Assembly: GCA_023653145.1 (NCBI GenBank)
Contig: JAMNXM010000003.1
Span: forward strand, 1 to 35,868
Origin: Minisyncoccota bacterium
Lineage (GTDB): Bacteria > Patescibacteriota > Minisyncoccia > Phycocordibacterales > Phycocordibacteraceae
DNA: 35,868 nt
Direction of reading: 5' to 3'
A program made the position numbers and the translations under genes. The notes under the pieces were generated by a model, which saw nothing but the letters and a program-made list of their open reading frames with translations, had not been told where the DNA came from and ran no database searches. Shown one piece after another: positions 20,287-35,868 of this stretch. Each line of letters starts with the position of its first letter. Within the stretch, counting starts at the first letter, position 1.

Positions 20287-20360
20287 GCGCCTGTAGCTCA
20301 GTTGGTTAGAGCACGGAGCTTATACCTCCGCGGTCCTTGGTTCGAGTCCAAGCAGGCGCA
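20287..20360 (+). tRNA. tRNA-Ile(UAU)
   Basis: Cloverleaf GCGCCTG/CAGGCGC, anticodon arm CGGAG-CT TAT AC-CTCCG, T-loop TTCGAGT, A73; CCA not encoded. Confidence 0.9.
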
Positions 20361-20541
20361 CACAGTACACACACATCCCGCCTGCGCGGGATTTTGTGAC
20401 TGTGTGCGAGCCGGAGCCATGTTTTACGTCTCGTAAAACCGCGAGGCGGGGCCTGCGTGCACACGTGAACGTAGGTGAGCGTGTGACATGTGGGCCACTA
20501 GAACTAATCCCGAATCGCGGGCGAGTCCAACCAGGCGCACA
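20343..20541 (+). mobile_element. T-loop-inserted structured element plus duplicated tRNA-Ile 3' end (20522-20541)
   Basis: CGAGTCCAA(G/C)CAGGCGCACA repeat; core CCGGAGC, GAGGCGGGGCC, GAACGTAGGTGAGC and terminal TCGCGGG. Confidence 0.7.
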
Positions 20542-25799: not shown

Positions 25800-26222
25800 A
25801 TGGCACTGAAGACTCTTCCGACTAAAACCTCAGCACGGACATTGATTACTGCGCTCCCAGACCAAAAGCGCGCCGACGCACTCCTGCTCCTCAAGATTTT
25901 TACTGACGCAACAGGTATGAAGCCGGTAGTGTGGGGGACAAGCATCATTGGGTTTGGAAAGTACCACTATGAGTCACAGCGCTCCGCACAGAAAGGGGAC
26001 TGGCCGCTGGTCGCATTTGCATCACGCGCGACAGGCTTCACCATCTACATCATGCCGGGGTTCGGTGAGTACAAAGCACTACTCGCAAAACTTGGTCCGC
26101 ACAAAATCAGTGGCGGTTCATGTCTCTACATTAAACGCCTTGCTGGTGTGCACGTCCCAACACTCACGACGCTGATCAAGAGGTCAACAAAAGAGATGCA
26201 AAAGAAGTACGGTGCAGCATAG
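25800..26222 (+). CDS. DUF1801 (YdhG-like) protein
   Basis: PVVWGTSIIGFGKYHY, WPLVAFA.R, LGPHK..GSCLYIKRL. Confidence 0.85.
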   Translation: MALKTLPTKTSARTLITALPDQKRADALLLLKIFTDATGMKPVVWGTSIIGFGKYHYESQRSAQKGDWPLVAFASRATGFTIYIMPGFGEYKALLAKLGPHKISGGSCLYIKRLAGVHVPTLTTLIKRSTKEMQKKYGAA

Positions 26223-26241
26223 TCCTTGGTATGATAGAAGT

Positions 26242-27798
26242 ATGAAGAAGCTCTGGAAACACATTGTTGAACAGCAGGCACTCCTACTCATCCTAGTGGT
26301 TGCAGTTGCTGTTGGCGGATACTGGTACCTCTCGCGCGACATCAATGGTGCAGAAGAACTCTTGTCAGTCACCCCCGCTCCGTTCCTCCAAGAAGTGTCA
26401 CTCTCCGGCAAAGTTGAGGCGCAAAAAGATGTTGACCTCGGGTTTGCGGCAGGTGGCCGCGTTCAGTACGTGACGGTCAAAGTGGGCGACGTCGTCCAAG
26501 CGGGCCAGACGCTCGCAGAGGTAGAAAACGGTGACATCGTTGCGCTCGTCGAGCAGCGCCGTGCCGTACTCCGTGTTGCCGAGGCAGAACTTGCCGCACT
26601 CAAAGTTGGGACTCGCCCCGAGCAGGTTGCAGTGTCTGAGGCAGACGTTGTTGCAAAGCGCGTTCAACTTGAGCAGTCAGTGTCCGCGCTTGTGAACGCA
26701 ATTAAAGACGCATACACCGAGGCAGACGACGCGGTACGCACGCAGACTGACCAGTTCTTCTCAAACCCTACGAGCAACAGTCCGCAACTCACGTTTACCG
26801 TTGCAAGTTCTCAGACCGAAGCGTCTGTAGAGAATGGTCGCCGCGACATGGAAGGCATGCTTGCTGCGTGGGCAGGGGACGTTGCGGGACTCTCGACATC
26901 AGGCGATGTGGACGCTGCGCTCCTTAAGGCAAAGACCAACCTTGCGACAGTTGCATCATTTTTGTTCAAGACTAACCTTGCGATTACGCAGGGAGGGGCA
27001 ACGGGAGCGGTAACTCAGGCGGACCTTAACTCGTTTGCGGCGGGCGTCAGTGTTGCACGCTCTGCAATAAACAATGCCATAACAGTGCTCACGAGTGCAG
27101 AAACCGCGCGCGCAAACGCAACCACCGCACTCGTGTCCGCTCAGTCGTCACTTGCACTCGCACGCGCAGGCGCAACGCAAGAAGACATAACCGCGCAAGA
27201 GGCACGTGTCGCGTCTGCGCGCGCTGCAGTATCGGACGCAACCGCACAACTTCAAAAAACACGCATTACTGCACCATTTACCGGCACCGTCACGACGGTT
27301 GATGCTAAAGCGGGTGAGGTCGCATCGGCCAACACCCCGGTCCTATCGCTCATCAGTGCATCAGACGTGTTGATTGAGAGTTATGTCCCGGAGATTAACT
27401 TTGCGATTCTTGCGCTTGGTGACAAGGCGCGTGTAACCTTGGACGCATACAGTGAAGAGACGGTCTTTGCGGCAACACTCACCGCCATCGACCCAGCCGA
27501 GACGGTGCGAGACGGGGTTTCGACATACCGCGTACTCCTGTCGTTTGATCAGAAAGATCCACGTATCCGCGCAGGTATGACTGCAAACGTGATTATTGTG
27601 ACTGACGAGCGCCCGGGCATTATTGCAATTCCACAGCGCATCGTCCGATCCAAAGATGGCGTAAAGGTAGTAACCGTAAAAGTTGGTGACACATATGTTG
27701 ACCGTCAGGTAGTAACTGGAGTAGTATCATCGTCTGGGTCTGTTGAGGTAGTGTCAGGACTCCAGGCAGGGGACACTGTGGTTGTGGTACCAAAGTAA
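26242..27798 (+). CDS. Efflux periplasmic adaptor (HlyD/MacA-like membrane fusion protein) with long coiled coil
   Basis: N-terminal TM, VKVGDVVQAGQ.LA lipoyl half-motif, ITAPFTGTV, RAGMTANV, VVSGLQAGD. Confidence 0.9.
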   Translation: MKKLWKHIVEQQALLLILVVAVAVGGYWYLSRDINGAEELLSVTPAPFLQEVSLSGKVEAQKDVDLGFAAGGRVQYVTVKVGDVVQAGQTLAEVENGDIVALVEQRRAVLRVAEAELAALKVGTRPEQVAVSEADVVAKRVQLEQSVSALVNAIKDAYTEADDAVRTQTDQFFSNPTSNSPQLTFTVASSQTEASVENGRRDMEGMLAAWAGDVAGLSTSGDVDAALLKAKTNLATVASFLFKTNLAITQGGATGAVTQADLNSFAAGVSVARSAINNAITVLTSAETARANATTALVSAQSSLALARAGATQEDITAQEARVASARAAVSDATAQLQKTRITAPFTGTVTTVDAKAGEVASANTPVLSLISASDVLIESYVPEINFAILALGDKARVTLDAYSEETVFAATLTAIDPAETVRDGVSTYRVLLSFDQKDPRIRAGMTANVIIVTDERPGIIAIPQRIVRSKDGVKVVTVKVGDTYVDRQVVTGVVSSSGSVEVVSGLQAGDTVVVVPK

Positions 27799-27799
27799 T

Positions 27800-29050
27800 A
27801 TGCTGCCGCTCTCAGTGCGGATTGGGTTTTTCCTCGCGGTGCGGCAGATCCGCCACGCATCGCTGTGGACGACGAGCCTGATCATCGGGGTGATGGTGCT
27901 CACATTCCTCAACCTGGTGGTGGTGTCAGGCATTTTGGTCGGACTCATACAGGGGTCGATTGACCAGTTCCGTGCACAGTCAACAGGGGACTTGATCATT
28001 TCAAACCTGACTGACAAGTCGTTTATCGAAAACAGTCCTAACCTCCTCACACTCCTCGACACTATCCCAGAAATAGACTCGTACTCAGCGCGCTACATCG
28101 AGACGGGCTCTGTCGAGGCAAACTATCAAACCAAGCGCGCCAAGGACAAGCCAAACATTGCAGGCACTGCTGTGACAGGCATCGACCCTGCGCGCGAAGA
28201 CTCGGTCACGGGTATTAGTCAGTTCGTTATCAAGGGAAGTTACCTCGGGCCAAACGACTTTGACCAAGTACTCATTGGCTCGTACCTCCTCAAAGAGTAT
28301 TTCCCCGTCGAGAGTCCAGGACTCCAAGTACTCGACAACGTCGACGTCGGGAGTAAGGTGCGCATCCAAGTGGGAGGGGTCTTGCGCGAGTTTACCGTCA
28401 AAGGAATTTTGAAAACTAAAGTTGATGAGGTAAGTCGCAACGCGTTTTTAGTCGACTCGCAGTTTCGGAGCATGATTGGCCGCACGGACGGGAACGTCGA
28501 CCAAATAGCCGTGCGACTAAAGCCCGATGCCGACCCCGCAGCGGTCCGCGACACACTGATCCGCGCAGGTGCAGACACCTACGCGCGCGTGCAGACTTTT
28601 GAGGACGCACAGCCTAAGTTTCTTAAAGACATCGTCGCGACGTTTAACCTGCTTGGTGCCGCGTTCTCATCTATCGGGCTCGTGGTCGCGTCTATCACTA
28701 TCTTCATCGTCATCTTTATTAACGCGATTACGCGCCGCAAGTTTATCGGCATTCTCAAAGGTATCGGCATCCACGGACGCGTGATCGAAATCTCGTACGT
28801 GTTCCAGTCTATCTTTTACGCAGTCATTGGCTCGGGGATTGGGCTCGCCATGGTGTATGGACTCCTCGTCCCGTACTTCGCGCGTAACCCTATCGACTTT
28901 CCATTCTCTGACGGTATCCTCGTGGCGCCGATCGACGAGACTGTCGCGCGCATCGCGCTCCTCGTGGTGTCTACCGTGATAGCAGGGTACATACCGGCGT
29001 GGATGATTATTCGCAAAAATACGCTCGACTCTATCCTCGGTCGTAAATAG
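27800..29050 (+). CDS. ABC transporter permease (FtsX/MacB/LolE family)
   Basis: TM, periplasmic domain, then 3 TM; RRKFIGILKGIG; AGYIPA. Confidence 0.9.
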   Translation: MLPLSVRIGFFLAVRQIRHASLWTTSLIIGVMVLTFLNLVVVSGILVGLIQGSIDQFRAQSTGDLIISNLTDKSFIENSPNLLTLLDTIPEIDSYSARYIETGSVEANYQTKRAKDKPNIAGTAVTGIDPAREDSVTGISQFVIKGSYLGPNDFDQVLIGSYLLKEYFPVESPGLQVLDNVDVGSKVRIQVGGVLREFTVKGILKTKVDEVSRNAFLVDSQFRSMIGRTDGNVDQIAVRLKPDADPAAVRDTLIRAGADTYARVQTFEDAQPKFLKDIVATFNLLGAAFSSIGLVVASITIFIVIFINAITRRKFIGILKGIGIHGRVIEISYVFQSIFYAVIGSGIGLAMVYGLLVPYFARNPIDFPFSDGILVAPIDETVARIALLVVSTVIAGYIPAWMIIRKNTLDSILGRK

Positions 29051-29051
29051 T

Positions 29052-29738
29052 ATGATTGTCACCAAAAACCTCATCCGCACATTTGTCACCGGTGACATCG
29101 TCACGCAGGTGTTAAAGGGTATCGACTTTGAGTCGAAGGACGGAGACTTTATCGCCATCATGGGACGCTCCGGCGCGGGGAAGTCGACGTTTATGTACCA
29201 GCTCTCACTCCTCGACTCGCCGACCGATGGCACGATAACCATAGACGGCGTCGATACGCACACGATGCCAGAGTCTAAGCGCGTCGAGTTTCGCCTTACG
29301 TACTTCGGGTACGTGTTCCAGGACTACGCGCTCCTGCCAGAGTTGACCGCGCTCGAGAACGTCGCACTTCCACTTTTAATGCAGGGGAAGAAGCGTGCGA
29401 AGGCGTATAAAGAGGCGACCACTGCGCTCGAGCGGATGGGGCTCGGCCACCGGCCTAACAACCTACCGTCACAACTCTCCGGCGGCGAGCAGCAGCGCGT
29501 GTCTATCGCACGCGCCGTCGCCCACAAGCCGAAGGTCCTCTTCGCCGACGAGCCGACCGCCAACCTCGACAACGAGTCGTCCGAGGCCGTGATGCAGATC
29601 TTTAAAGAGCTGAACGAAGAGGGGCAGACTATTATTATGGTCACCCACGAGGAGGTCTACGCCCGCCGTGCGAAGCGCCTCATCGTCATCGACGACGGCC
29701 GTATCAAGAGCGAAGAGAAGTTGCACCACAAACACTAG
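29052..29738 (+). CDS. ABC transporter ATP-binding protein (LolD/MacB family)
   Basis: GRSGAGKST, LSGGEQQRVSIARA, FADEPTANLD, MVTHE. Confidence 0.95.
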   Translation: MIVTKNLIRTFVTGDIVTQVLKGIDFESKDGDFIAIMGRSGAGKSTFMYQLSLLDSPTDGTITIDGVDTHTMPESKRVEFRLTYFGYVFQDYALLPELTALENVALPLLMQGKKRAKAYKEATTALERMGLGHRPNNLPSQLSGGEQQRVSIARAVAHKPKVLFADEPTANLDNESSEAVMQIFKELNEEGQTIIMVTHEEVYARRAKRLIVIDDGRIKSEEKLHHKH

Positions 29739-29785
29739 GGAAGAGGTACACTGTCCGTAGTTACTACTTATTTATACAAAAACCT

Positions 29786-30154
29786 ATGGCGTACGTAGAC
29801 GGATTTATATTGCTCGTGCCAAAGAAGAACAGAAAGGAGTATAAAAAGATGGCAGAGGAAGGGAAGCGTACGTGGTTGAAGCACGGCGCCATAGACTACC
29901 AAGAGTGCCGTATGGACGACGACACCAGGGCCAAGTACGGAACACTGAGTTTTGCCAAGATGGTAAAGGCTAAGGCAGGGGAGGAGGTGTGGCTTTCGTA
30001 CATCGTGTACAAGTCAAAGGGTGACCGCGCTCGCATCAACAAGCTCGTGATGAAGGAGATGGAGACTATGTACAGCGAGAAAGATATGAAGAACATGCCC
30101 TTCAAGATGAATCGGATGTCCGTCGCTGGCTTTGCCGTCGAGGTGGGAAAGTAA
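29786..30154 (+). CDS. DUF1428 (YbaA-like) protein
   Basis: MAYVDGF...VPKK, W..HGA..Y.EC, MPF.M.RM...GF. Confidence 0.85.
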   Translation: MAYVDGFILLVPKKNRKEYKKMAEEGKRTWLKHGAIDYQECRMDDDTRAKYGTLSFAKMVKAKAGEEVWLSYIVYKSKGDRARINKLVMKEMETMYSEKDMKNMPFKMNRMSVAGFAVEVGK

Positions 30155-30155
30155 C

Positions 30156-30854
30156 ATGAAAGGCAAGGTCGTCGTTATCACGGGTTCTAGTACAGGTTTA
30201 GGCAAGGCGCTGGCACTCGCGTTTGTACAGCGTGGTGCTGTGGTAGTTGTGAATGGCCGCGATAAAGAAACACTTGAGAGAGTGGCTGCTGAGGTGGGCG
30301 CAACCGCGTTTGTTGCTGATATCACCAAGGCTGACGACGTTGCCGCACTCGCTGATTTTGCAGTTACACAATTCGGGCACATAGATATCTGGGTCAACAA
30401 CGCAGGCGTGTGGATGGCGCACGCCCCAGCGACAGAACTAAACATTGAGCGTGTACGCGCGATGTTTGATACAAACGTCTTCGGCCTCATGCTTGGCTGT
30501 AAGGTTGCACTGACGCAGATGCGCACACAGGGGTTTGGCACCATACTCAATATCTGTTCAACCTCGGGCCTTGTTGGTCGCCCTACGTCGTCGGCGTACT
30601 CGTCGTCCAAGTGGGCAGTGCGCGGCTTTAGCGACTCTATCCGTGGAGAGTGCGAGGGGACCAATATAAAGGTAGTCACTGCCTACCCGGGCGGCATCAA
30701 GACGAATCTCTTTGATGAAGAGCGACCCCCAGAATACGCTGACTTTATGACCCCAGAGTCTGTGGCTGAGAAGATAGTCCGTAACTTAGAACTTGAAAGT
30801 CCCGAGACAGAGCAAATCATAAAGCGCCCCGCCCAGCCCGACGGACCAAAATAG
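30156..30854 (+). CDS. Short-chain dehydrogenase/reductase
   Basis: TGSSTGLG, VNNAG, YSSSK. Confidence 0.92.
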   Translation: MKGKVVVITGSSTGLGKALALAFVQRGAVVVVNGRDKETLERVAAEVGATAFVADITKADDVAALADFAVTQFGHIDIWVNNAGVWMAHAPATELNIERVRAMFDTNVFGLMLGCKVALTQMRTQGFGTILNICSTSGLVGRPTSSAYSSSKWAVRGFSDSIRGECEGTNIKVVTAYPGGIKTNLFDEERPPEYADFMTPESVAEKIVRNLELESPETEQIIKRPAQPDGPK

Positions 30855-30956
30855 ATGGTCACCCACGAGGAGGTCTACGCCCGCCGTGCGAAGCGCCTTA
30901 TCGTCATCGATGATGGTCGTATCAAGAGCGAAGAGAAGCTCCACCATAAGCACTAG
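30855..30956 (+). repeat. Duplicated 3' end (34 codons) of the ABC ATPase gene (copy of 29637-29738)
   Basis: 94/102 nt identical; all 8 differences are synonymous. Confidence 0.95.
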
Positions 30957-31002
30957 TACACAATTGCTATAGCTAAGACATCGAGGGCGCCGGATAGGAG
31001 AG
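30953..31002 (-). repeat. Degenerate copy of the comF 3' end
   Basis: Encodes LLSGALDVLAIAIVY*, versus comF LLSSGALDVLAIAIAH*. Confidence 0.85.
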
Positions 31003-31140
31003 TGTGCGTCCCTAGGTTGATACTTGAATGCTGTCGCGGGCTTTGCAGTTGACATGGTAAAGAGGTCTCCGTAAGAAGAACTGTAAACTAGCGCCATTTC
31101 GCCGAAGCCGGGACCTGTCTGATGAAATTAGTTACAACTT

Positions 31141-32979
31141 CTATTTTCTTTGCTTACTTAGCGCCTCCTCAGCATAAGAAAAGATTTTTTCAAATTGGTC
31201 TTTTGTAGCTTTTGTAATCAATACCGATTCTTTCTTAAAAGACAAAATGCTAAGGGAATGATTAAGAGCACTCTTAAGCGCTGGTGCATCCTTTCTCGCC
31301 TGTACATGTGCATTCGTTCCTAAGGCAGCATCTATAATTCGATCAACTTCAGCTTCATTGAAGACGCCCTCCGTTTCAAAAGGTTTCTGTAGTACATCCT
31401 GAAGAGTAAAAATTCTCTCCTTAATGAAATCTCCGAATTCCTCAATGTAGGCACTTTTTGCCTTTTCACCACCCTCATCGCCATCAAGCATTACCACAAA
31501 CGGGGCACCCCAAGATAAGTAAATGCGAATAATTTCCCACAACTGGTCTTTTCCTGCCCCTGGATAGAATCGGAAATCATATTTCTTACGAAGACCAATA
31601 ACATTATTTATGTATTCAAATGTAAACCAATCATTTTTACCCTCCGTGATAACAATGTTTGGTACTGGTTCAACAGCACTTGGTGCGTACTCGAGTAAAT
31701 CTAGAATAGGTTGGCAGTAGGACATTTTTGTAACTCCGTAACCCTCTCCAACAAAGGTGAAATATCTAAGTGCATTTATTCTTGCACTATCTTCAAATGT
31801 CATATCGCCCTCCAAGTTTTTCTCCGACTGGTTCTCATTCATAACTACGTATGTGCCTGGCAACCACTCCATACGGATTAAATGGTGACTGTGAGTTGAG
31901 TAGGCGACCATTGACTTGTCACTCAGGTCTGCAATAGCATCCAATATTTTGGTCTGCGCTTTTGAATGCAGGTTTGACGCAGGCTCGTCAAGCAAAAATA
32001 GAATATTCCTAGATCGATTCTTTCTAAACTCTGTGAATAATAGAAATGAAAAGAACCATTTGCATCCCTTACTACGCTCATTAATTGAAAACTGCTGATT
32101 AGCATCAGTAATAACCCGGAATGATACCTCAAGGTACGCTCCCTTTTGCTCAGGAATAAGTCGAATCTCTTTGAAGTTTAATTTTTTACCACCGTCTATA
32201 AACAGATCTTTCCATGCATCAGTAATTGTTTCATTTAACTTCCCCTCCATTTTTAAAACTCTCCCTGCTGCAGTATCGTGATCAGGTGTCCACAAATCTG
32301 CAACCCATTCCTGGAAGGAAGTTGATTTCGGTTGCACTGAAACGAGAATGTCATCCAACACAGACTGCCAAGATTTATTGAGTTCAGTATCTACTTCGAC
32401 CTGACGGTCATTTGGCGTTGATGTGTTGGTATAAAAAAGTACTTTTTCTGGAATATCAAAAATAAAGTCTTCATAAAAAAGGATTTCTGGCAGTAAATTC
32501 TCACGAATATGCTTGATTAACTCAACCCATGAATTTTTGTCGGTAGAAGAAAGGCTTTTAGTTTTTCCTTTCACACGAGAACTGAAGGACACAGTTTTAG
32601 TAGTATCAACGTACTGATGGTCTTTGAAGTTAAAGTTAATGGTATAGGTGAACTCCTCACCAATTTCGAGTGTAGTCTTTTTTCCGATCTCCTTCCATTT
32701 TTTCAGAATGGAATTCTTGTCAGTCTCGTCTAATAGAGCTGATGCCGTCAATTCCACACTTCCAGTGAAGTCTGTACCTTTAGGTCTAAGCATTTTATAC
32801 TCGTCAGCATTCGGTGTCTGGCCTCGAGCTACGCGGTAAAAAAGCTCTAGCGACTTCAAAATTGTAGTTTTACCGCTTTCATTTAAGCCGACGAGGGTCA
32901 GGATACGGTTTTTCTGCAAGTCTAAGTCAACTTTCTCAATGCCCCTATAGTTTTCAAGATGGAAGCTCTTGTATTGCAT
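31141..32979 (-). CDS. ABC-type ATPase + TOPRIM nuclease (OLD-like), candidate defence protein
   Basis: LENYRGI, GLNESGKTT, RSKG.KWF signature, LLDEPASNLH, STHSHH; TOPRIM ITEGKND and LDGD; AT-rich. Confidence 0.8.
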   Translation of the reverse strand: MQYKSFHLENYRGIEKVDLDLQKNRILTLVGLNESGKTTILKSLELFYRVARGQTPNADEYKMLRPKGTDFTGSVELTASALLDETDKNSILKKWKEIGKKTTLEIGEEFTYTINFNFKDHQYVDTTKTVSFSSRVKGKTKSLSSTDKNSWVELIKHIRENLLPEILFYEDFIFDIPEKVLFYTNTSTPNDRQVEVDTELNKSWQSVLDDILVSVQPKSTSFQEWVADLWTPDHDTAAGRVLKMEGKLNETITDAWKDLFIDGGKKLNFKEIRLIPEQKGAYLEVSFRVITDANQQFSINERSKGCKWFFSFLLFTEFRKNRSRNILFLLDEPASNLHSKAQTKILDAIADLSDKSMVAYSTHSHHLIRMEWLPGTYVVMNENQSEKNLEGDMTFEDSARINALRYFTFVGEGYGVTKMSYCQPILDLLEYAPSAVEPVPNIVITEGKNDWFTFEYINNVIGLRKKYDFRFYPGAGKDQLWEIIRIYLSWGAPFVVMLDGDEGGEKAKSAYIEEFGDFIKERIFTLQDVLQKPFETEGVFNEAEVDRIIDAALGTNAHVQARKDAPALKSALNHSLSILSFKKESVLITKATKDQFEKIFSYAEEALSKQRK

Positions 32980-33157
32980 GTAGATTATTTATTCTTTTTT
33001 CATTATACGCCGCCCTTCCTCAAAAGCCACAGGAGACTAAAAGGTCAAGTTTCGTTAGCAGAAAACAACATATATCCTACTAGAAGGAAATAACGTATAT
33101 GTAGACAGTCAACGTCCCATAATTTGCAAATCAGGCAATGAAGAGTACTCTGATTTT

Positions 33158-33475
33158 GTGAATACGGAAGATGAGGAGTTTGAGAAAGATGTGAAGGGAC
33201 TGTGGGATCAGTGGTTATTTGTTGTGGTTGCGACTTGTTTAGCCGTATTTATTGGTATAGCTGTAAATGCAGCTTATGAAATTTTAAGAGATTGTTTCTC
33301 AGCTTGGTATATACTTGTCCTCGGCATTATTTTTAGTTTGATATTAATAGACCTCTTTACCTATCTTCTAACAACTCTTTACCACACGCGTGAGCATCCT
33401 GAGGAGACATATTCAGGATTTCTAAAGAGGTATTGGAAGATGCGAGTTAGAAGCCTGCAGTTCTGGAGAAAATAG
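33158..33475 (+). CDS. Hypothetical 2-TM protein
   Basis: 105 aa, two hydrophobic helices, GTG start 6 nt after TACTCT. Confidence 0.6.
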   Translation: MNTEDEEFEKDVKGLWDQWLFVVVATCLAVFIGIAVNAAYEILRDCFSAWYILVLGIIFSLILIDLFTYLLTTLYHTREHPEETYSGFLKRYWKMRVRSLQFWRK

Positions 33476-33486
33476 GAGTTGCTTGT

Positions 33487-33551
33487 TTAATGCGCTATTG
33501 CTATAGCGAGGACGTCGAGGGCGCCGGAGGAGAGGAGCGCACGGCGGGCGT
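33487..33551 (-). repeat. Duplicated comF 3' end (copy of 34678-34742)
   Basis: Encodes ARRALLSSGALDVLAIAIAH*, identical in protein with synonymous nucleotide changes. Confidence 0.93.
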
Positions 33552-33642
33552 GGGGGCAAGATGTACACGACTAACTATTCTCTTATTCACGCGAATAGGA
33601 GAATAGTGCGGTTTAGGAATACATAAAGGTGGTTGCCTCCTA

Positions 33643-33677
33643 GATAGGTTCCTCACTCGCTCCACAGGTTCACAACG
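33643..33677. repeat. Cassette-boundary repeat, degenerate copy 1
   Basis: GATAGGTTCCTCACTCGCTCCACAGGTTCACAACG aligns to 34220-34257. Confidence 0.6.
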
Positions 33678-33697
33678 AGTTTTGGTATAGTGTTGAT

Positions 33698-34225
33698 ATG
33701 AAGATAATCGACCTGACATTGCCATTGTATTCTGGCATGCCAGTTTTCCCTGGTGATCCTGAAGTGTCTATTGAGCTCGTAGCAACACTAGAGAAGGACG
33801 GGTGGAATATGCGCCGCATGCAAGTAAACACGCACGATGCAACGCACATGAATGTTCCGATTCATATGGTTGCGGGAGGTAAAAATTTAGATGACTACTC
33901 GCTCGAAACATTCTGTGGTCCAGCAAAAATCTACATGCCTGATGCTCCGATGGAGCCCTCATTTGGATACATATTTAGAGACAGAAACATTGATACGGCA
34001 ATCGCAGAAGAAATAAAGAAAGTAAAACCCAGATTTGTTGGCATCTCAAGCGAATACGAATGGGATATAGAGATTGAGAAAGATCTCTTGGTTACTGGGA
34101 TCATCCAGTATGAGCATCTTGCAAATACTGCCGAGTTGCCCGAGAATTTCTTCTTTTATGGTATGCCTCTAAAGATCAAGGAAGGGGACGGAAGTCCAGT
34201 CAGAGCATTTGCTGTGGTTGATTAA
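33698..34225 (+). CDS. Cyclase / kynurenine formamidase family protein
   Basis: IIDLT.PL..GMPVFPGDP, THDATHMNVPIH, PLKIKEGDGSPVRA. Confidence 0.88.
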   Translation: MKIIDLTLPLYSGMPVFPGDPEVSIELVATLEKDGWNMRRMQVNTHDATHMNVPIHMVAGGKNLDDYSLETFCGPAKIYMPDAPMEPSFGYIFRDRNIDTAIAEEIKKVKPRFVGISSEYEWDIEIEKDLLVTGIIQYEHLANTAELPENFFFYGMPLKIKEGDGSPVRAFAVVD

Positions 34226-34257
34226 GGTTCCAACATCGTCCCATAGGGTCCACAACG
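34220..34257. repeat. Cassette-boundary repeat copy 2
   Basis: GATTAAGGTTCCAACATCGTCCCATAGGGTCCACAACG; 27/31 identical to 34643-34673. Confidence 0.8.
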
Positions 34258-34282
34258 GTATTTCTCAGTTATACTCTAGGCT

Positions 34283-34648
34283 ATGAAGATCTATATTTCT
34301 CATCCGAATAGTATTGATTTTAAAACTATTTTGTACGAGCCCTTGAAAGCATCAGAACTTTCACAAAAGCATGAATTCTTTCTGCCTCATGACGAGGGTC
34401 GTGATGAGAACACAAAGGAAGTGATCCGTACGAGCGGATTACTTATTGCAGAAGTTTCTGAACCATCAACAGGTTCTGGAATTGAAATGGGATGGGCAAG
34501 TGCTTTTGAGGTACCAGTATGGTGCGTCTATCAGAAGGACATGAAGCCTTCAGGGTCTGCAAAATATATTGCTTCAAAAATGTTTGCCTATACCGACAGC
34601 AAAGACCTTACTTCGATTCTGAATAAAGAGTTAGAAACTGTAGATTAG
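34283..34648 (+). CDS. Nucleoside 2-deoxyribosyltransferase-like protein
   Basis: MKIYISH, FFLPH, LIAEVSEPSTGSGIEMGWA. Confidence 0.75.
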   Translation: MKIYISHPNSIDFKTILYEPLKASELSQKHEFFLPHDEGRDENTKEVIRTSGLLIAEVSEPSTGSGIEMGWASAFEVPVWCVYQKDMKPSGSAKYIASKMFAYTDSKDLTSILNKELETVD

Positions 34649-34673
34649 GATTCCAACCTCGTCCCATAAGGTC
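34643..34673. repeat. Cassette-boundary repeat copy 3
   Basis: GATTAGGATTCCAACCTCGTCCCATAAGGTC, ending 4 nt from the comF stop. Confidence 0.8.
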
Positions 34674-34677
34674 GGGA

Positions 34678-35322
34678 CTAGTGCGCAATCGCAATAGCGA
34701 GGACGTCGAGGGCGCCGGAGGAGAGGAGAGCCCGGCGGGCGTCGGAGAGGGTGGCACCGGATTCGGTGACGTCGTCTATGAGGATGACGAAGCGGCCGCG
34801 CGCACGCGAGTGCGCGCGGAATGCGCCTTGCATGTTCGCTTTTCTTTGCGATCGTGCAATGTGTACTTGTGATGTGCGGTCCTCGCGCGTAAGGAGTGTG
34901 TCGTCGTACGTTACGTCGGGCATGCGATCTGCGATAGCGCGGGCGAAGAGTGCTGCCTGGTTATACCCACGCTCGCGGAGTCGCGCGGCCGAGGAGGGGA
35001 TAGGCGCGAGGACCACGTTCTCCCAACCAGAGAGGGCGCGCGCTTCTGCCACGAGTTCTGTGAGGTAGTCCGCAGCGAAGGGCGCGACTTTATCTCCGAC
35101 CGAGCGCTCGCCGTAATACTTCACTGCCTGCACGAGGGAGCGGACACGCTCATCGTGATAGGGGAGCAGTGCATGGATCCACGGATGGCCCGGGAGCACC
35201 GTCGGTGTGGCAAGGTCTGCAATGTCCTCGTCAGAAAGTATCCGTGCTCGGGTTGCACGCGGATGGCGCGGCAAAAGTGTGTCAAAGACTGCGACGACAC
35301 ATAAAGTCAACGCACGCCACAT
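34678..35322 (-). CDS. comF: ComF family phosphoribosyltransferase-like competence protein
   Basis: VKY.G, PIP....RLRERGYNQA, R..N..GAF, ILIDDV.ESGATL. Confidence 0.9.
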   Translation of the reverse strand: MWRALTLCVVAVFDTLLPRHPRATRARILSDEDIADLATPTVLPGHPWIHALLPYHDERVRSLVQAVKYYGERSVGDKVAPFAADYLTELVAEARALSGWENVVLAPIPSSAARLRERGYNQAALFARAIADRMPDVTYDDTLLTREDRTSQVHIARSQRKANMQGAFRAHSRARGRFVILIDDVTESGATLSDARRALLSSGALDVLAIAIAH

Positions 35323-35344
35323 GCTATACTCTCCCCATAGTACT

Positions 35345-35868
35345 ATGGAGTTTTCATTGGGAAAGGTCGGTGAGTACCTGTCTCGGTTCAGCGGCGCGCT
35401 TGGTCAAAAGGAAAGCGAGTCAGTGGTGGGCGTTGACATAGGGACCTCAAGCATCAAACTCGTACAACTGCGCGAGCGGCACGGCTCTGCGATTTTGGAA
35501 ACCTACGGCGAGATAGCACTCGGCCCCTACGCGCAGGCGCAAGTTGGGCAGTCGACCTCGCCGCCAGCAGAAAAGATACAAGAGGCCTGCACCGACCTTA
35601 TCCGTGAGGCAAACGTGACCGCTCGCACCGGCGGTTTTTCAGTACCGCTCTCATCCTCACTCATCACACTCCTTACGCTCCCTACTAAAAACGCTGACGA
35701 CTTAAAGTCGATGGTGCCTATTGAGGCGCGCAAGTACATCCCGGTCCCCGTGTCCGAGGTGGCGCTCGACTGGTTCGTGATCCCTGAGGAAGAGGTCAAG
35801 TTTCTTGGCGCACCCAAGGACACACGTCCACAAAATGCGACCGACATTTTAATGGTCGCAATTCACAA
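35345..35868 (+). CDS. pilM: Type IV pilus assembly protein PilM (3'-truncated by the window edge; not in the ORF track)
   Basis: VVGVDIGTSSIKLVQL..ILETYGEIAL, EARKYIPVPVSEVALDW; open to the window end. Confidence 0.9.
   Translation, partial: MEFSLGKVGEYLSRFSGALGQKESESVVGVDIGTSSIKLVQLRERHGSAILETYGEIALGPYAQAQVGQSTSPPAEKIQEACTDLIREANVTARTGGFSVPLSSSLITLLTLPTKNADDLKSMVPIEARKYIPVPVSEVALDWFVIPEEEVKFLGAPKDTRPQNATDILMVAIH

Follow-up and report, generated by a model that had tools for sequence, protein, structure and literature searches.

Between the stops of two convergent genes, an ABC-transporter ATPase gene and comF, lies an island of three gene packets parted by orphaned copies of the two genes' own 3' ends, and the two innermost orphans appear to preserve the joint at which the genes once met. 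The packets were probably added in three events, each combining homology on one side with an illegitimate join on the other (an HFIR-like process, after homology-facilitated illegitimate recombination), from the DNA of sister lineages. The window, that is, the whole contig of 35.9 kb (35,868 nt) that was analysed, belongs to a Patescibacteria genome of 633 kb with a completeness of 91% and a GC content of 0.52. The genes that flank the island, and the live and orphaned tails, are as follows.

26212-27798, + strand: HlyD-like membrane-fusion gene (Pfam HlyD_D23/HlyD_3)
27782-29050, + strand: MacB/FtsX-type permease gene (Pfam MacB_PCD/FtsX)
29052-29738, + strand: live ABC-transporter ATPase gene, 228 aa, MacB/LolD-like (Pfam ABC_tran, 1.5e-33)
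29637-29738, + strand: live ATPase tail, 33 codons and the stop, the copy in use
30855-30956, + strand: orphan ATPase tail, encoding the same 33 residues
30953-30956, no strand: CTAG common to both orphan stops
30953-31002, - strand: comF tail3, an orphan, older and more diverged than the other copies
33487-33551, - strand: orphan comF tail2
34678-34742, - strand: live comF tail
34678-35322, - strand: live comF, 214 aa, ComF/GntX-family phosphoribosyltransferase-like (Pfam Pribosyltran)
35207-35866, + strand: pilM-like gene, running off the contig; a conserved right flank, divergent from comF

The left flank is a conserved operon of the HlyD-like, MacB/FtsX-type permease and ABC-ATPase genes (26212-29738), and its FtsX-ATPase pair is kept in 77 of 80 related loci. 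Against NCBIfam the live ATPase is LolD/FtsE/MacB-like, with scores under the equivalog cut-offs, and the live comF product matches the ComF/GntX models at 3e-17 to 9e-18, likewise under their cut-offs. On the right, comF homologues occur in 59 of the 61 genomes searched, and pilM adjoins comF in all 29 of the relatives' loci examined; the adjacency of comF and pilM, which the original prediction had read as a sign of natural transformation, counts as no evidence for it. Both live genes end, as had been predicted, in a histidine codon and a stop (...AAA CAC TAG in the ATPase gene and ...GCG CAC TAG in comF), and the distance between the two live stops is 4939 nt (29738 to 34678). After a one-base correction of earlier coordinates, the comF stop lies at 34678-34680 and that of tail2 at 33487-33489.

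Three comF ends and two ATPase ends stand in series across this region. The live and orphan ATPase tails are 92% identical over 102 nt (E = 2.8e-35 when the whole 633-kb genome is searched against itself by BLAST); they agree at every one of their opening 44 nt, and their 8 differences are spread across 7 codons. The orphan ATPase tail opens with an ATG right behind the stop of a short-chain dehydrogenase gene and in frame with that gene. Tail2 encodes ARRALLSSGALDVLAIAIAH followed by a stop, the same peptide as the live comF tail, to which it is about 90% identical over 67 nt (E = 2.3e-17 in the genome self-BLAST), including a 35-nt identical block. Its last 63 nt hold 7 differences from live comF, all of them synonymous, a change of the stop from TAG to TAA among them. 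Tail3 matches the live comF tail at 40 of 48 aligned bases with one 3-nt gap, which has a binomial P of about 3e-14 at that fixed register. Its peptide, LLSGALDVLAIAIVY and a stop against LLSSGALDVLAIAIAH and a stop in the live gene, carries the changes A>V and H>Y and lacks one codon, and 6 of its 8 substitutions are silent by manual count. By blastn-short alone tail3 is a weak match, with a 14-nt core and E = 0.11, and ranks third in the genome behind the live tail and tail2. Measured from the stop, the homology extends for about 65-68 nt in tail2 and about 50 nt in tail3, where the sequence is decayed and a gapped alignment could lengthen it.

The stops of the two innermost orphans overlap exactly where the original prediction had placed them, on the CTAG at 30953-30956: the orphan ATPase stop reads TAG at 30954-30956, and that of tail3 reads CTA on the plus strand at 30953-30955. 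To judge from its sequence, this 148-nt stretch appears to be what remains of the ancestral joint between two convergent genes with stops overlapping on CTAG. Such a joint exists in living relatives. comF loci were fetched from 30 species representatives of the same genus, with plain ORFs as gene calls, and the ATPase gene and comF are convergent neighbours in two of them, G015 and G007, which rank first and third in comF identity (58% and 52%, respectively). In G007, comF (1143-1781) and the ATPase gene on the opposite strand (1778-2530) have the 4 nt CTAG in common; in G015 they lie end to end with zero spacer, and in both loci the HlyD-FtsX-ATPase operon converges on comF. The ancestral state that had been proposed, convergent genes with overlapping stops and relatives that still show them, is thus borne out by the overlap in G007 and the spacer-free abutment in G015. 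In a more distant relative (L118) the same slot is occupied by two small ORFs. A scan of metagenome contigs with comF gave no locus closer than 56% identity (8 loci) and no strain-level variants.

Convergent genes with overlapping stops are nothing unusual here: when ORFs were called crudely across the genome, an overlap or a spacer of at most 3 nt turned up in 25 of 81 convergent pairs, and in 8 of these the overlap was 4 nt. Tight stop-to-stop joints at comF, present in 16 of 28 relatives, were considered as a special feature and dropped because the background is already 25/81.

The way in which the tails differ bears on where they came from. All 8 differences between the ATPase tails are synonymous, as are all 7 between live comF and tail2, and the simulated probability of an unchanged peptide under random substitutions is 2.5e-5 for the ATPase pair and 1.75e-4 for comF tail2. 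Silent-only differences imply that both members of a pair evolved as parts of functional genes, in lineages apart from each other, and that one of the two was imported. Live and orphan tails hence appear to be alleles from sister lineages rather than duplicates that decayed in place. Since comF evolves fast, its nearest species representative being only 58% identical, the identical peptides point to very close donor lineages. Tail3 is also skewed to silent change, yet its two amino acid changes and its lost codon mark it as older. The tails might instead be target-site or tandem duplications made in place upon insertion and diverging later, as the direct repeats that flank each module would suggest, but this is very improbable: not one of the 15 differences in the two young pairs alters the peptide, at the probabilities just given, and a duplication spanning the overlapped joint would have put the orphans at the outer ends of the island, not together in its middle.

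The original prediction had also pointed to the rest of the genome as a place for further gene-tail duplicates. The genome self-BLAST returned none besides those of the island; apart from these, the short repeats consist of tRNAs, a partial tRNA-Ala copy, 5'-leader/promoter repeats and paralogues. Similarly, the relatives' loci, when scanned for self-repeats, showed hairpins, promoters and repeats between paralogues, with no gene-tail duplicate among the 12 pairs inspected.

Between the live stops, the orphan tails part the island into three packets of 1.1-2.5 kb with two genes apiece. A single insertion on the left had been foreseen, with two or more on the right, and each is found with its orphaned tail. 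The packets and their contents are listed here.

29739-30854, + strand: module 1, two genes, GC about 0.50-0.55
29786-30154, + strand: DUF1428 gene of module 1 (Pfam DUF1428, 9.6e-26)
30132-30854, + strand: short-chain dehydrogenase gene of module 1 (Pfam adh_short, 8.6e-52)
31003-33486, no strand: module 2, an ATPase gene and an ORF, GC about 0.38-0.42
31141-32979, - strand: AAA_15 ATPase gene of module 2, 612 aa (Pfam AAA_15, 4.3e-24)
33158-33475, + strand: 105-aa ORF of module 2 without a family match
33552-34677, + strand: module 3, two genes and a hairpin, GC about 0.40-0.47
33572-33607: 36-nt hairpin of module 3
33698-34225, + strand: cyclase/arylformamidase-like gene of module 3 (Pfam Cyclase, 1.2e-10)
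34283-34648, + strand: nucleoside-deoxyribosyltransferase-like gene of module 3 (Nuc_deoxyrib_tr, 4.2e-5, below cut-off)

Taken as a whole, module 2 has a GC content of about 0.39, against 0.52 for the genome. Its AAA_15 protein is AriA-, OLD- and GajA-like, matching the PADLOC models AriA (1.2e-25) and Old (3.9e-15), and is likened to the ATPases of the PARIS, OLD and Gabija defence systems; the 105-aa ORF beside it stops 11 nt from the stop of tail2. In module 3, a motif of about 35 nt (repeat family D3) stands in three copies at gene borders. These copies resemble the 3' end of tRNA-Ala, a resemblance that hints that the module 3 cassettes may once have belonged to an island that was linked to a tRNA gene and possibly driven by an integrase. 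Behind the tRNA-Ala of the genome itself lie a one-gene insert and a partial tRNA copy. The hairpin of module 3 was considered as a DNA-uptake sequence and rejected, being single-copy in the genome.

No recombinase, transposase, phage, excisionase or mobilisation family was matched by the six cargo ORFs in Pfam, PADLOC or NCBIfam, and an Rfam search of the island gave no match. Nor do the cargo proteins adjoin comF in the 29 relatives' loci or in 20 longer stretches, and near the ATPase operon none was found in 80 loci, save two distant short-chain dehydrogenase matches. When the whole island was searched as DNA against 401 genomes of the order, none of the modules was recovered; the search returned conserved pieces of the ATPase gene, weak DUF1428 matches at 66-67%, a short hairpin and a 66-nt match, 79% identical, inside the AAA_15 gene.

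The description of the locus as integrase-free stands for the island itself and, in the genome at large, for tyrosine integrases. The sole PF00589 match in the genome, on contig C17, is a Xer-type protein that scores above the XerA cut-off and below those of XerC and XerD, and that reaches 136 bits against the integron-integrase model, whose cut-off is 265. The description does not stand for recombinases of every kind, as a large serine recombinase (Resolvase, Recombinase and zinc ribbon) is encoded at the start of contig C24. The 91%-complete genome yielded no integron integrase, and because it is incomplete an integrase could lie in the missing part. To our knowledge, integrases and conjugative elements are scarce in Patescibacteria.

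These data also bear on the main alternative, a reading of the modules as decayed or trans-mobilised site-specific elements (CIME-like), accreted in tandem by tyrosine integrases that targeted the 3' ends of comF and the ATPase gene, with each attP mimicking a gene end and the integrases later lost or encoded elsewhere. The repeats do start sharply, with 44-nt and 35-nt identical blocks followed by diverged ends, as attL/attR would. The comF tail was used twice, module 3 carries motifs like the tRNA-Ala 3' end, and the genomic tRNA-Ala has its insert and partial copy. There is room for missing genes in the 9% of the genome that is unassembled, and tandem accretion of CIMEs is well documented in the passages cited here from PMC7563491. 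Nevertheless, this origin is unlikely. The island has no integrase and the only tyrosine recombinase of the genome is of Xer type; modules of 1.1-2.5 kb and two genes match no excisionase or mobilisation gene; and two adjacent, differing targets would require two specificities. Moreover, the tail2 peptide is the host's own fast-evolving comF end, which suits a gene from a sister lineage better than a mimic, the boundaries of tail2 and tail3 appear unequal, and module 1 occurs elsewhere without a flanking repeat (see below).

The same slot was followed in public metagenomes, namely a groundwater run that matches best and is the possible source sample (X1), and an aquatic (X2), a drinking-water (X3) and a freshwater (X4) metagenome. 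The comparison was made at contig level only, with a likeness threshold of 85%; X2-X4 give no cover of module 2 and most of module 3, and this gap was not counted as absence. In X3, a single 5722-nt contig spans the slot from the ATPase end (to 29743, about 90%) to comF (from 34691, about 96%) and holds a different insert of 2286 letters. In X4, the ATPase gene, module 1 and the orphan tail are contiguous, the contig bridging module 1 into the orphan ATPase tail, and are followed by 2155 letters unlike the window. Module 1 lies behind the ATPase gene at about 91% identity in both X2 and X4. In X2, module 1 has no orphan tail, and the contig runs unbroken through the repeat block; beyond the second base after the dehydrogenase stop, the place of the orphan tail is taken by 37 other letters and a hairpin. 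One side of this joint measures only 40 nt and consists of a repeated hairpin, and the joint was read as other DNA behind module 1, not as a deletion. There is thus at least one lineage in which module 1 lies natively behind the ATPase gene, with no scar. A second X2 contig matches the window through the tail2 block and 55 nt into module 3, beyond which it diverges.

On the parts that they share, X2-X4 differ from the window by about 3-10%, a divergence that matches the 8-10% between the tails. The differing contents of X2-X4 indicate that the slot is a real variable hotspot rather than a misassembly, and the contig sequences point to its varying among lineages 3-10% apart; the accretion hotspot of the original prediction gains support from these different contents in close relatives from other samples. 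Misassembly, which the prediction had named as its possible undoing, would mean that contigs of several strains were chained through short identical blocks. The X1 contigs (Logan) do break exactly in such blocks (29651-29666/30869-30884 and 33508-33532/34699-34723), where the path of a k=31 graph is ambiguous. An artefact is nonetheless scarcely credible: every junction outside these blocks is bridged in X1 at an even depth of 8.6-11.2, alternative paths would require 1.2-kb circles at chromosomal depth, and the blocks, at 35-44 nt, are shorter than an ordinary read. In addition, the junction of module 1 with the orphan tail recurs in the unrelated sample X4 and that of tail2 with module 3 in X2.

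Because these junctions are common to X4 and X2, the scars concerned either pre-date the lineages or moved between them. It follows that the scars might have been made in sister lineages, the composite island, or parts of it, then arriving by double-crossover homologous recombination in the ATPase and comF flanks; the fossil would in that case record events elsewhere in the species complex. The shared junctions, at about 90% identity, favour this view, and homologous cassette exchange between conserved flanks is what defines the minimal mobile elements of Neisseria in the text cited from PMC3082526. Such an arrival merely relocates the problem, as every orphan tail still needs one illegitimate join. 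We regard it as rather improbable, and it is compatible with the explanation that we prefer, not opposed to it.

The preferred explanation, one-sided homologous insertion from sister-lineage DNA, starts from the ancestral joint. With no intergenic space between the genes, DNA could be added only through events that rebuilt a gene end. Incoming DNA, diverged by about 5-10%, would have carried a working ATPase or comF 3' end with cargo behind it. This donor DNA would have paired homologously with the resident gene, and its far end would have been joined illegitimately inside the last 50-102 nt of that gene, such that the tail of the donor took over as the live one and that of the resident was left downstream as an orphan. 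The joins probably lie inside the tail as a result of selection, because a join past the stop would cut the neighbouring gene. On the comF side, module 2 would have come first, orphaning tail3, which later decayed, and then module 3, orphaning tail2; on the ATPase side, module 1 was presumably inserted in the same manner. The oldest orphan would then be the innermost one. Against this explanation count the identical blocks of 44 nt and 35 nt, which an att core or later gene conversion would also give; the motifs of module 3 that resemble the tRNA-Ala 3' end; the large serine recombinase on C24 and the 9% of the genome that is missing; and the lack of gene-tail duplicates in the other relatives' loci scanned.

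A homologous anchor is indeed found beside the cargo, both in the allelic tails with their silent differences and in X2, where the ATPase gene and module 1 are contiguous. The junction at 30854/30855 is the sole one that can be compared with a donor-like state, and there the window and X2 coincide to 30856, so that 2 nt are shared. Two shared nucleotides are at the low end for HFIR. The layout of the locus, the former joint, the allelic tails, the changing contents of the slot and an island without integrase are seen in the sequences themselves; the pathway we infer to have been either HFIR or break repair that used DNA taken up by the cell as its template. Insertion apparently proceeded without a dedicated insertion enzyme. 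The likely route of entry would be natural transformation. ComEC, DprA, RecA and ComF are encoded in the genome, the ComEC match having one in-frame TGA, and comEC-dependent natural transformation is reported for a cultivated Saccharibacterium in the part of PMC10633639 drawn on here.

The locus can be placed beside several known systems. HFIR during natural transformation has been described for Acinetobacter, Streptococcus pneumoniae and Pseudomonas stutzeri (studies cited in PMC5361080). The likeness lies in a homology anchor on one side, an illegitimate far join, no dedicated recombinase and, here, a set of competence genes. Known HFIR was observed, whereas here the process is read from scars, and HFIR deletes recipient DNA, whereas a join inside the anchor gene duplicates the gene's end. 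The passages cited from PMC5361080 also propose HFIR for orphan arrays at T6SS and Rhs loci and cite Jackson et al. 2009 on C-terminal displacement. As those passages describe displacement at Rhs, CDI and T6SS loci, a new 3' end arrives with cargo, the old end is kept downstream and the oldest orphan lies furthest away; orphaned 3' ends in series are likewise found here. In contrast, the ends in those systems are differing toxin domains with immunity genes (same passages), and here they encode the same peptide, belong to an ATPase gene and comF, carry unrelated cargo and accreted from both sides of an overlapped joint. Toxin and immunity ends are absent from the series. The locus therefore falls outside the toxin-displacement family, its displaced ends being non-polymorphic and its cargo not toxin or immunity genes.

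With the minimal mobile elements of Neisseria, as characterised in the cited text of PMC3082526, the locus shares conserved flanks, whole-gene cassettes that vary among strains, a transformable host and no mobility genes of its own. The slot is empty in G007 and G015, and it holds two ORFs in L118, the 2286-letter insert in X3 and variants in X2 and X4. Two-flank homologous exchange is scarless, however, and here orphan tails record illegitimate joins. Elements that integrate into 3' ends, and the CIMEs derived from them that lack integrases, resemble the island in their 3'-end direct repeats, tandem units and units without integrases, going by the sections of PMC7563491 cited. Flanking repeats with an identical core are present in the island; neither an integrase within it nor an integrase-bearing tandem partner or relative was found, its repeat boundaries appear unequal, and its tails are alleles of the host lineage. 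The locus is no integron either, as no integron integrase with attI/attC sites accompanies it. Among the titles and abstract openings of the papers listed on HFIR and genomic islands or on transformation in Patescibacteria, no description of such scars in Patescibacteria appeared, which leaves their absence from the literature unproven.

In summary, the locus is a layered record, with the ancestral joint in mid-island, outward build-up on both sides, and intermediate or alternative states in related populations. The kind of scar is known in principle, and the value of the case lies in its clarity, not in a new mechanism; its two-sided stratigraphy, with a preserved ancestral joint and intermediate states in other samples, opens the mechanism to direct testing. 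It offers a concrete model, in which homology holds one end of the incoming DNA and the other end is joined sloppily, and a signature to search for: an orphan tail that differs from the live tail by silent changes only, with no integrase nearby.

Patescibacteria have tiny, tightly packed genomes, and little is understood of the way in which accessory genes, candidate defence genes among them, reach these bacteria. We can speculate, while regarding it as doubtful, that the 3' ends of host genes act as portable, RecA-dependent attachment sites with a single homology arm, giving rise to recombinase-free cassette arrays. If so, a packet bearing the last 50-100 nt of a conserved gene would enter a competent sister lineage, packets would be lost again through recombination between tail repeats, and repeated rounds would produce ordered, integron-like arrays. 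As many convergent genes of Patescibacteria overlap at their stops, such portable tails might then be a main route of gene gain in these bacteria.

Module 3 of the island (33552-34677), whose cyclase-like and NDT-like genes adjoin the live comF end, contains two kinds of short repeated or foldable sequence:

33572-33607: near-perfect hairpin of 36 nt with 14-bp arms
33640-33680, 34217-34262 and 34640-34677: three copies of a ~35-nt motif, lying before, between and after both module 3 genes

The last motif copy is truncated 4-5 nt short of the comF stop. In its 3' part, the middle copy has 13 consecutive identities to the 3' terminus of the tRNA-Ala(TGC) encoded by this genome and three bases flanking it, a match hinting that the module 3 cassettes derive from a tRNA-linked island. 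The tRNA-Ala(TGC) gene itself stands in the following arrangement, listed with a second tRNA gene located in the window:

Contig C26 of the own genome, 21590-22508 (locus L156): tRNA-Ala(TGC), followed by a 239-aa ORF and then a partial tRNA-Ala copy
Window 20287-20361: tRNA-Ile with anticodon TAT, called by ARAGORN and confirmed as a tRNA by Rfam

On C26, the ORF contains tandem repeats and has no Pfam match, and the partial tRNA copy behind it, 91% identical over 56 nt, is degenerate. A tRNA gene here bears the end-duplicating signature seen in the gene tails of the island. As for the tRNA-Ile(TAT), it is an uncommon bacterial means of reading AUA.

The hairpin occurs only once in the own genome, and a DNA search with the island found that many genomes of the order match it at 84-94% identity, often in several copies. 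All matches in the 20 fetched loci are intergenic, and in about half of these loci the hairpin comes directly behind a stop codon, in many cases where two genes converge. In an aquatic metagenome run (X2), it is also present after module 1, at a joint with a 40-nt side only. A simple terminator would not be expected to show such sequence conservation, and the hairpin may mark cassette borders. In the window, module 1 is followed by the orphan ATPase tail, which reads as a predicted mini-ORF of 33 codons whose opening ATG is in frame and immediately 3' of the dehydrogenase stop TAG, giving the two a stop-start arrangement (30852-30956).

Genes with a possible bearing on DNA uptake or integration are found elsewhere in the own genome. 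A ComEC match (PF03772; contig C19, 20125-20856, locus L153) has one in-frame TGA within it, which could reflect a frameshift, two genes or recoding. The other is a recombinase:

Contig C24, 1-1233 (locus L072): large serine recombinase of at least 411 aa (Resolvase, Recombinase and zinc ribbon), extending past the contig start

This gene may belong to a prophage or an integrative element.

The gene downstream of comF was compared across relatives' loci (L004, L009, L012, L013 and L027-L051), and it is highly variable within the genus, the 28 neighbours falling into 18 similarity clusters. In 16 of the 28 loci, the comF stop is overlapped by a convergent ORF or followed by one at a distance of no more than 3 nt, the own-genome background of equally tight convergent pairs being 25 of 81 by a crude ORF call. 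Genome G014 ranks second among the relatives in comF identity (57%; L004, 2112-2729); there, the comF stop overlaps a convergent NT5C-type 5'-nucleotidase gene by 4 nt, and the contig runs out shortly beyond. On the ATPase side, the closest relative by identity of the upstream FtsX permease (77%; L073, 11896-12582) has a 23-nt overlap between the ATPase gene and a different convergent ORF, of 228 aa. The comF and ATPase gene ends are places where partner genes switch from species to species.
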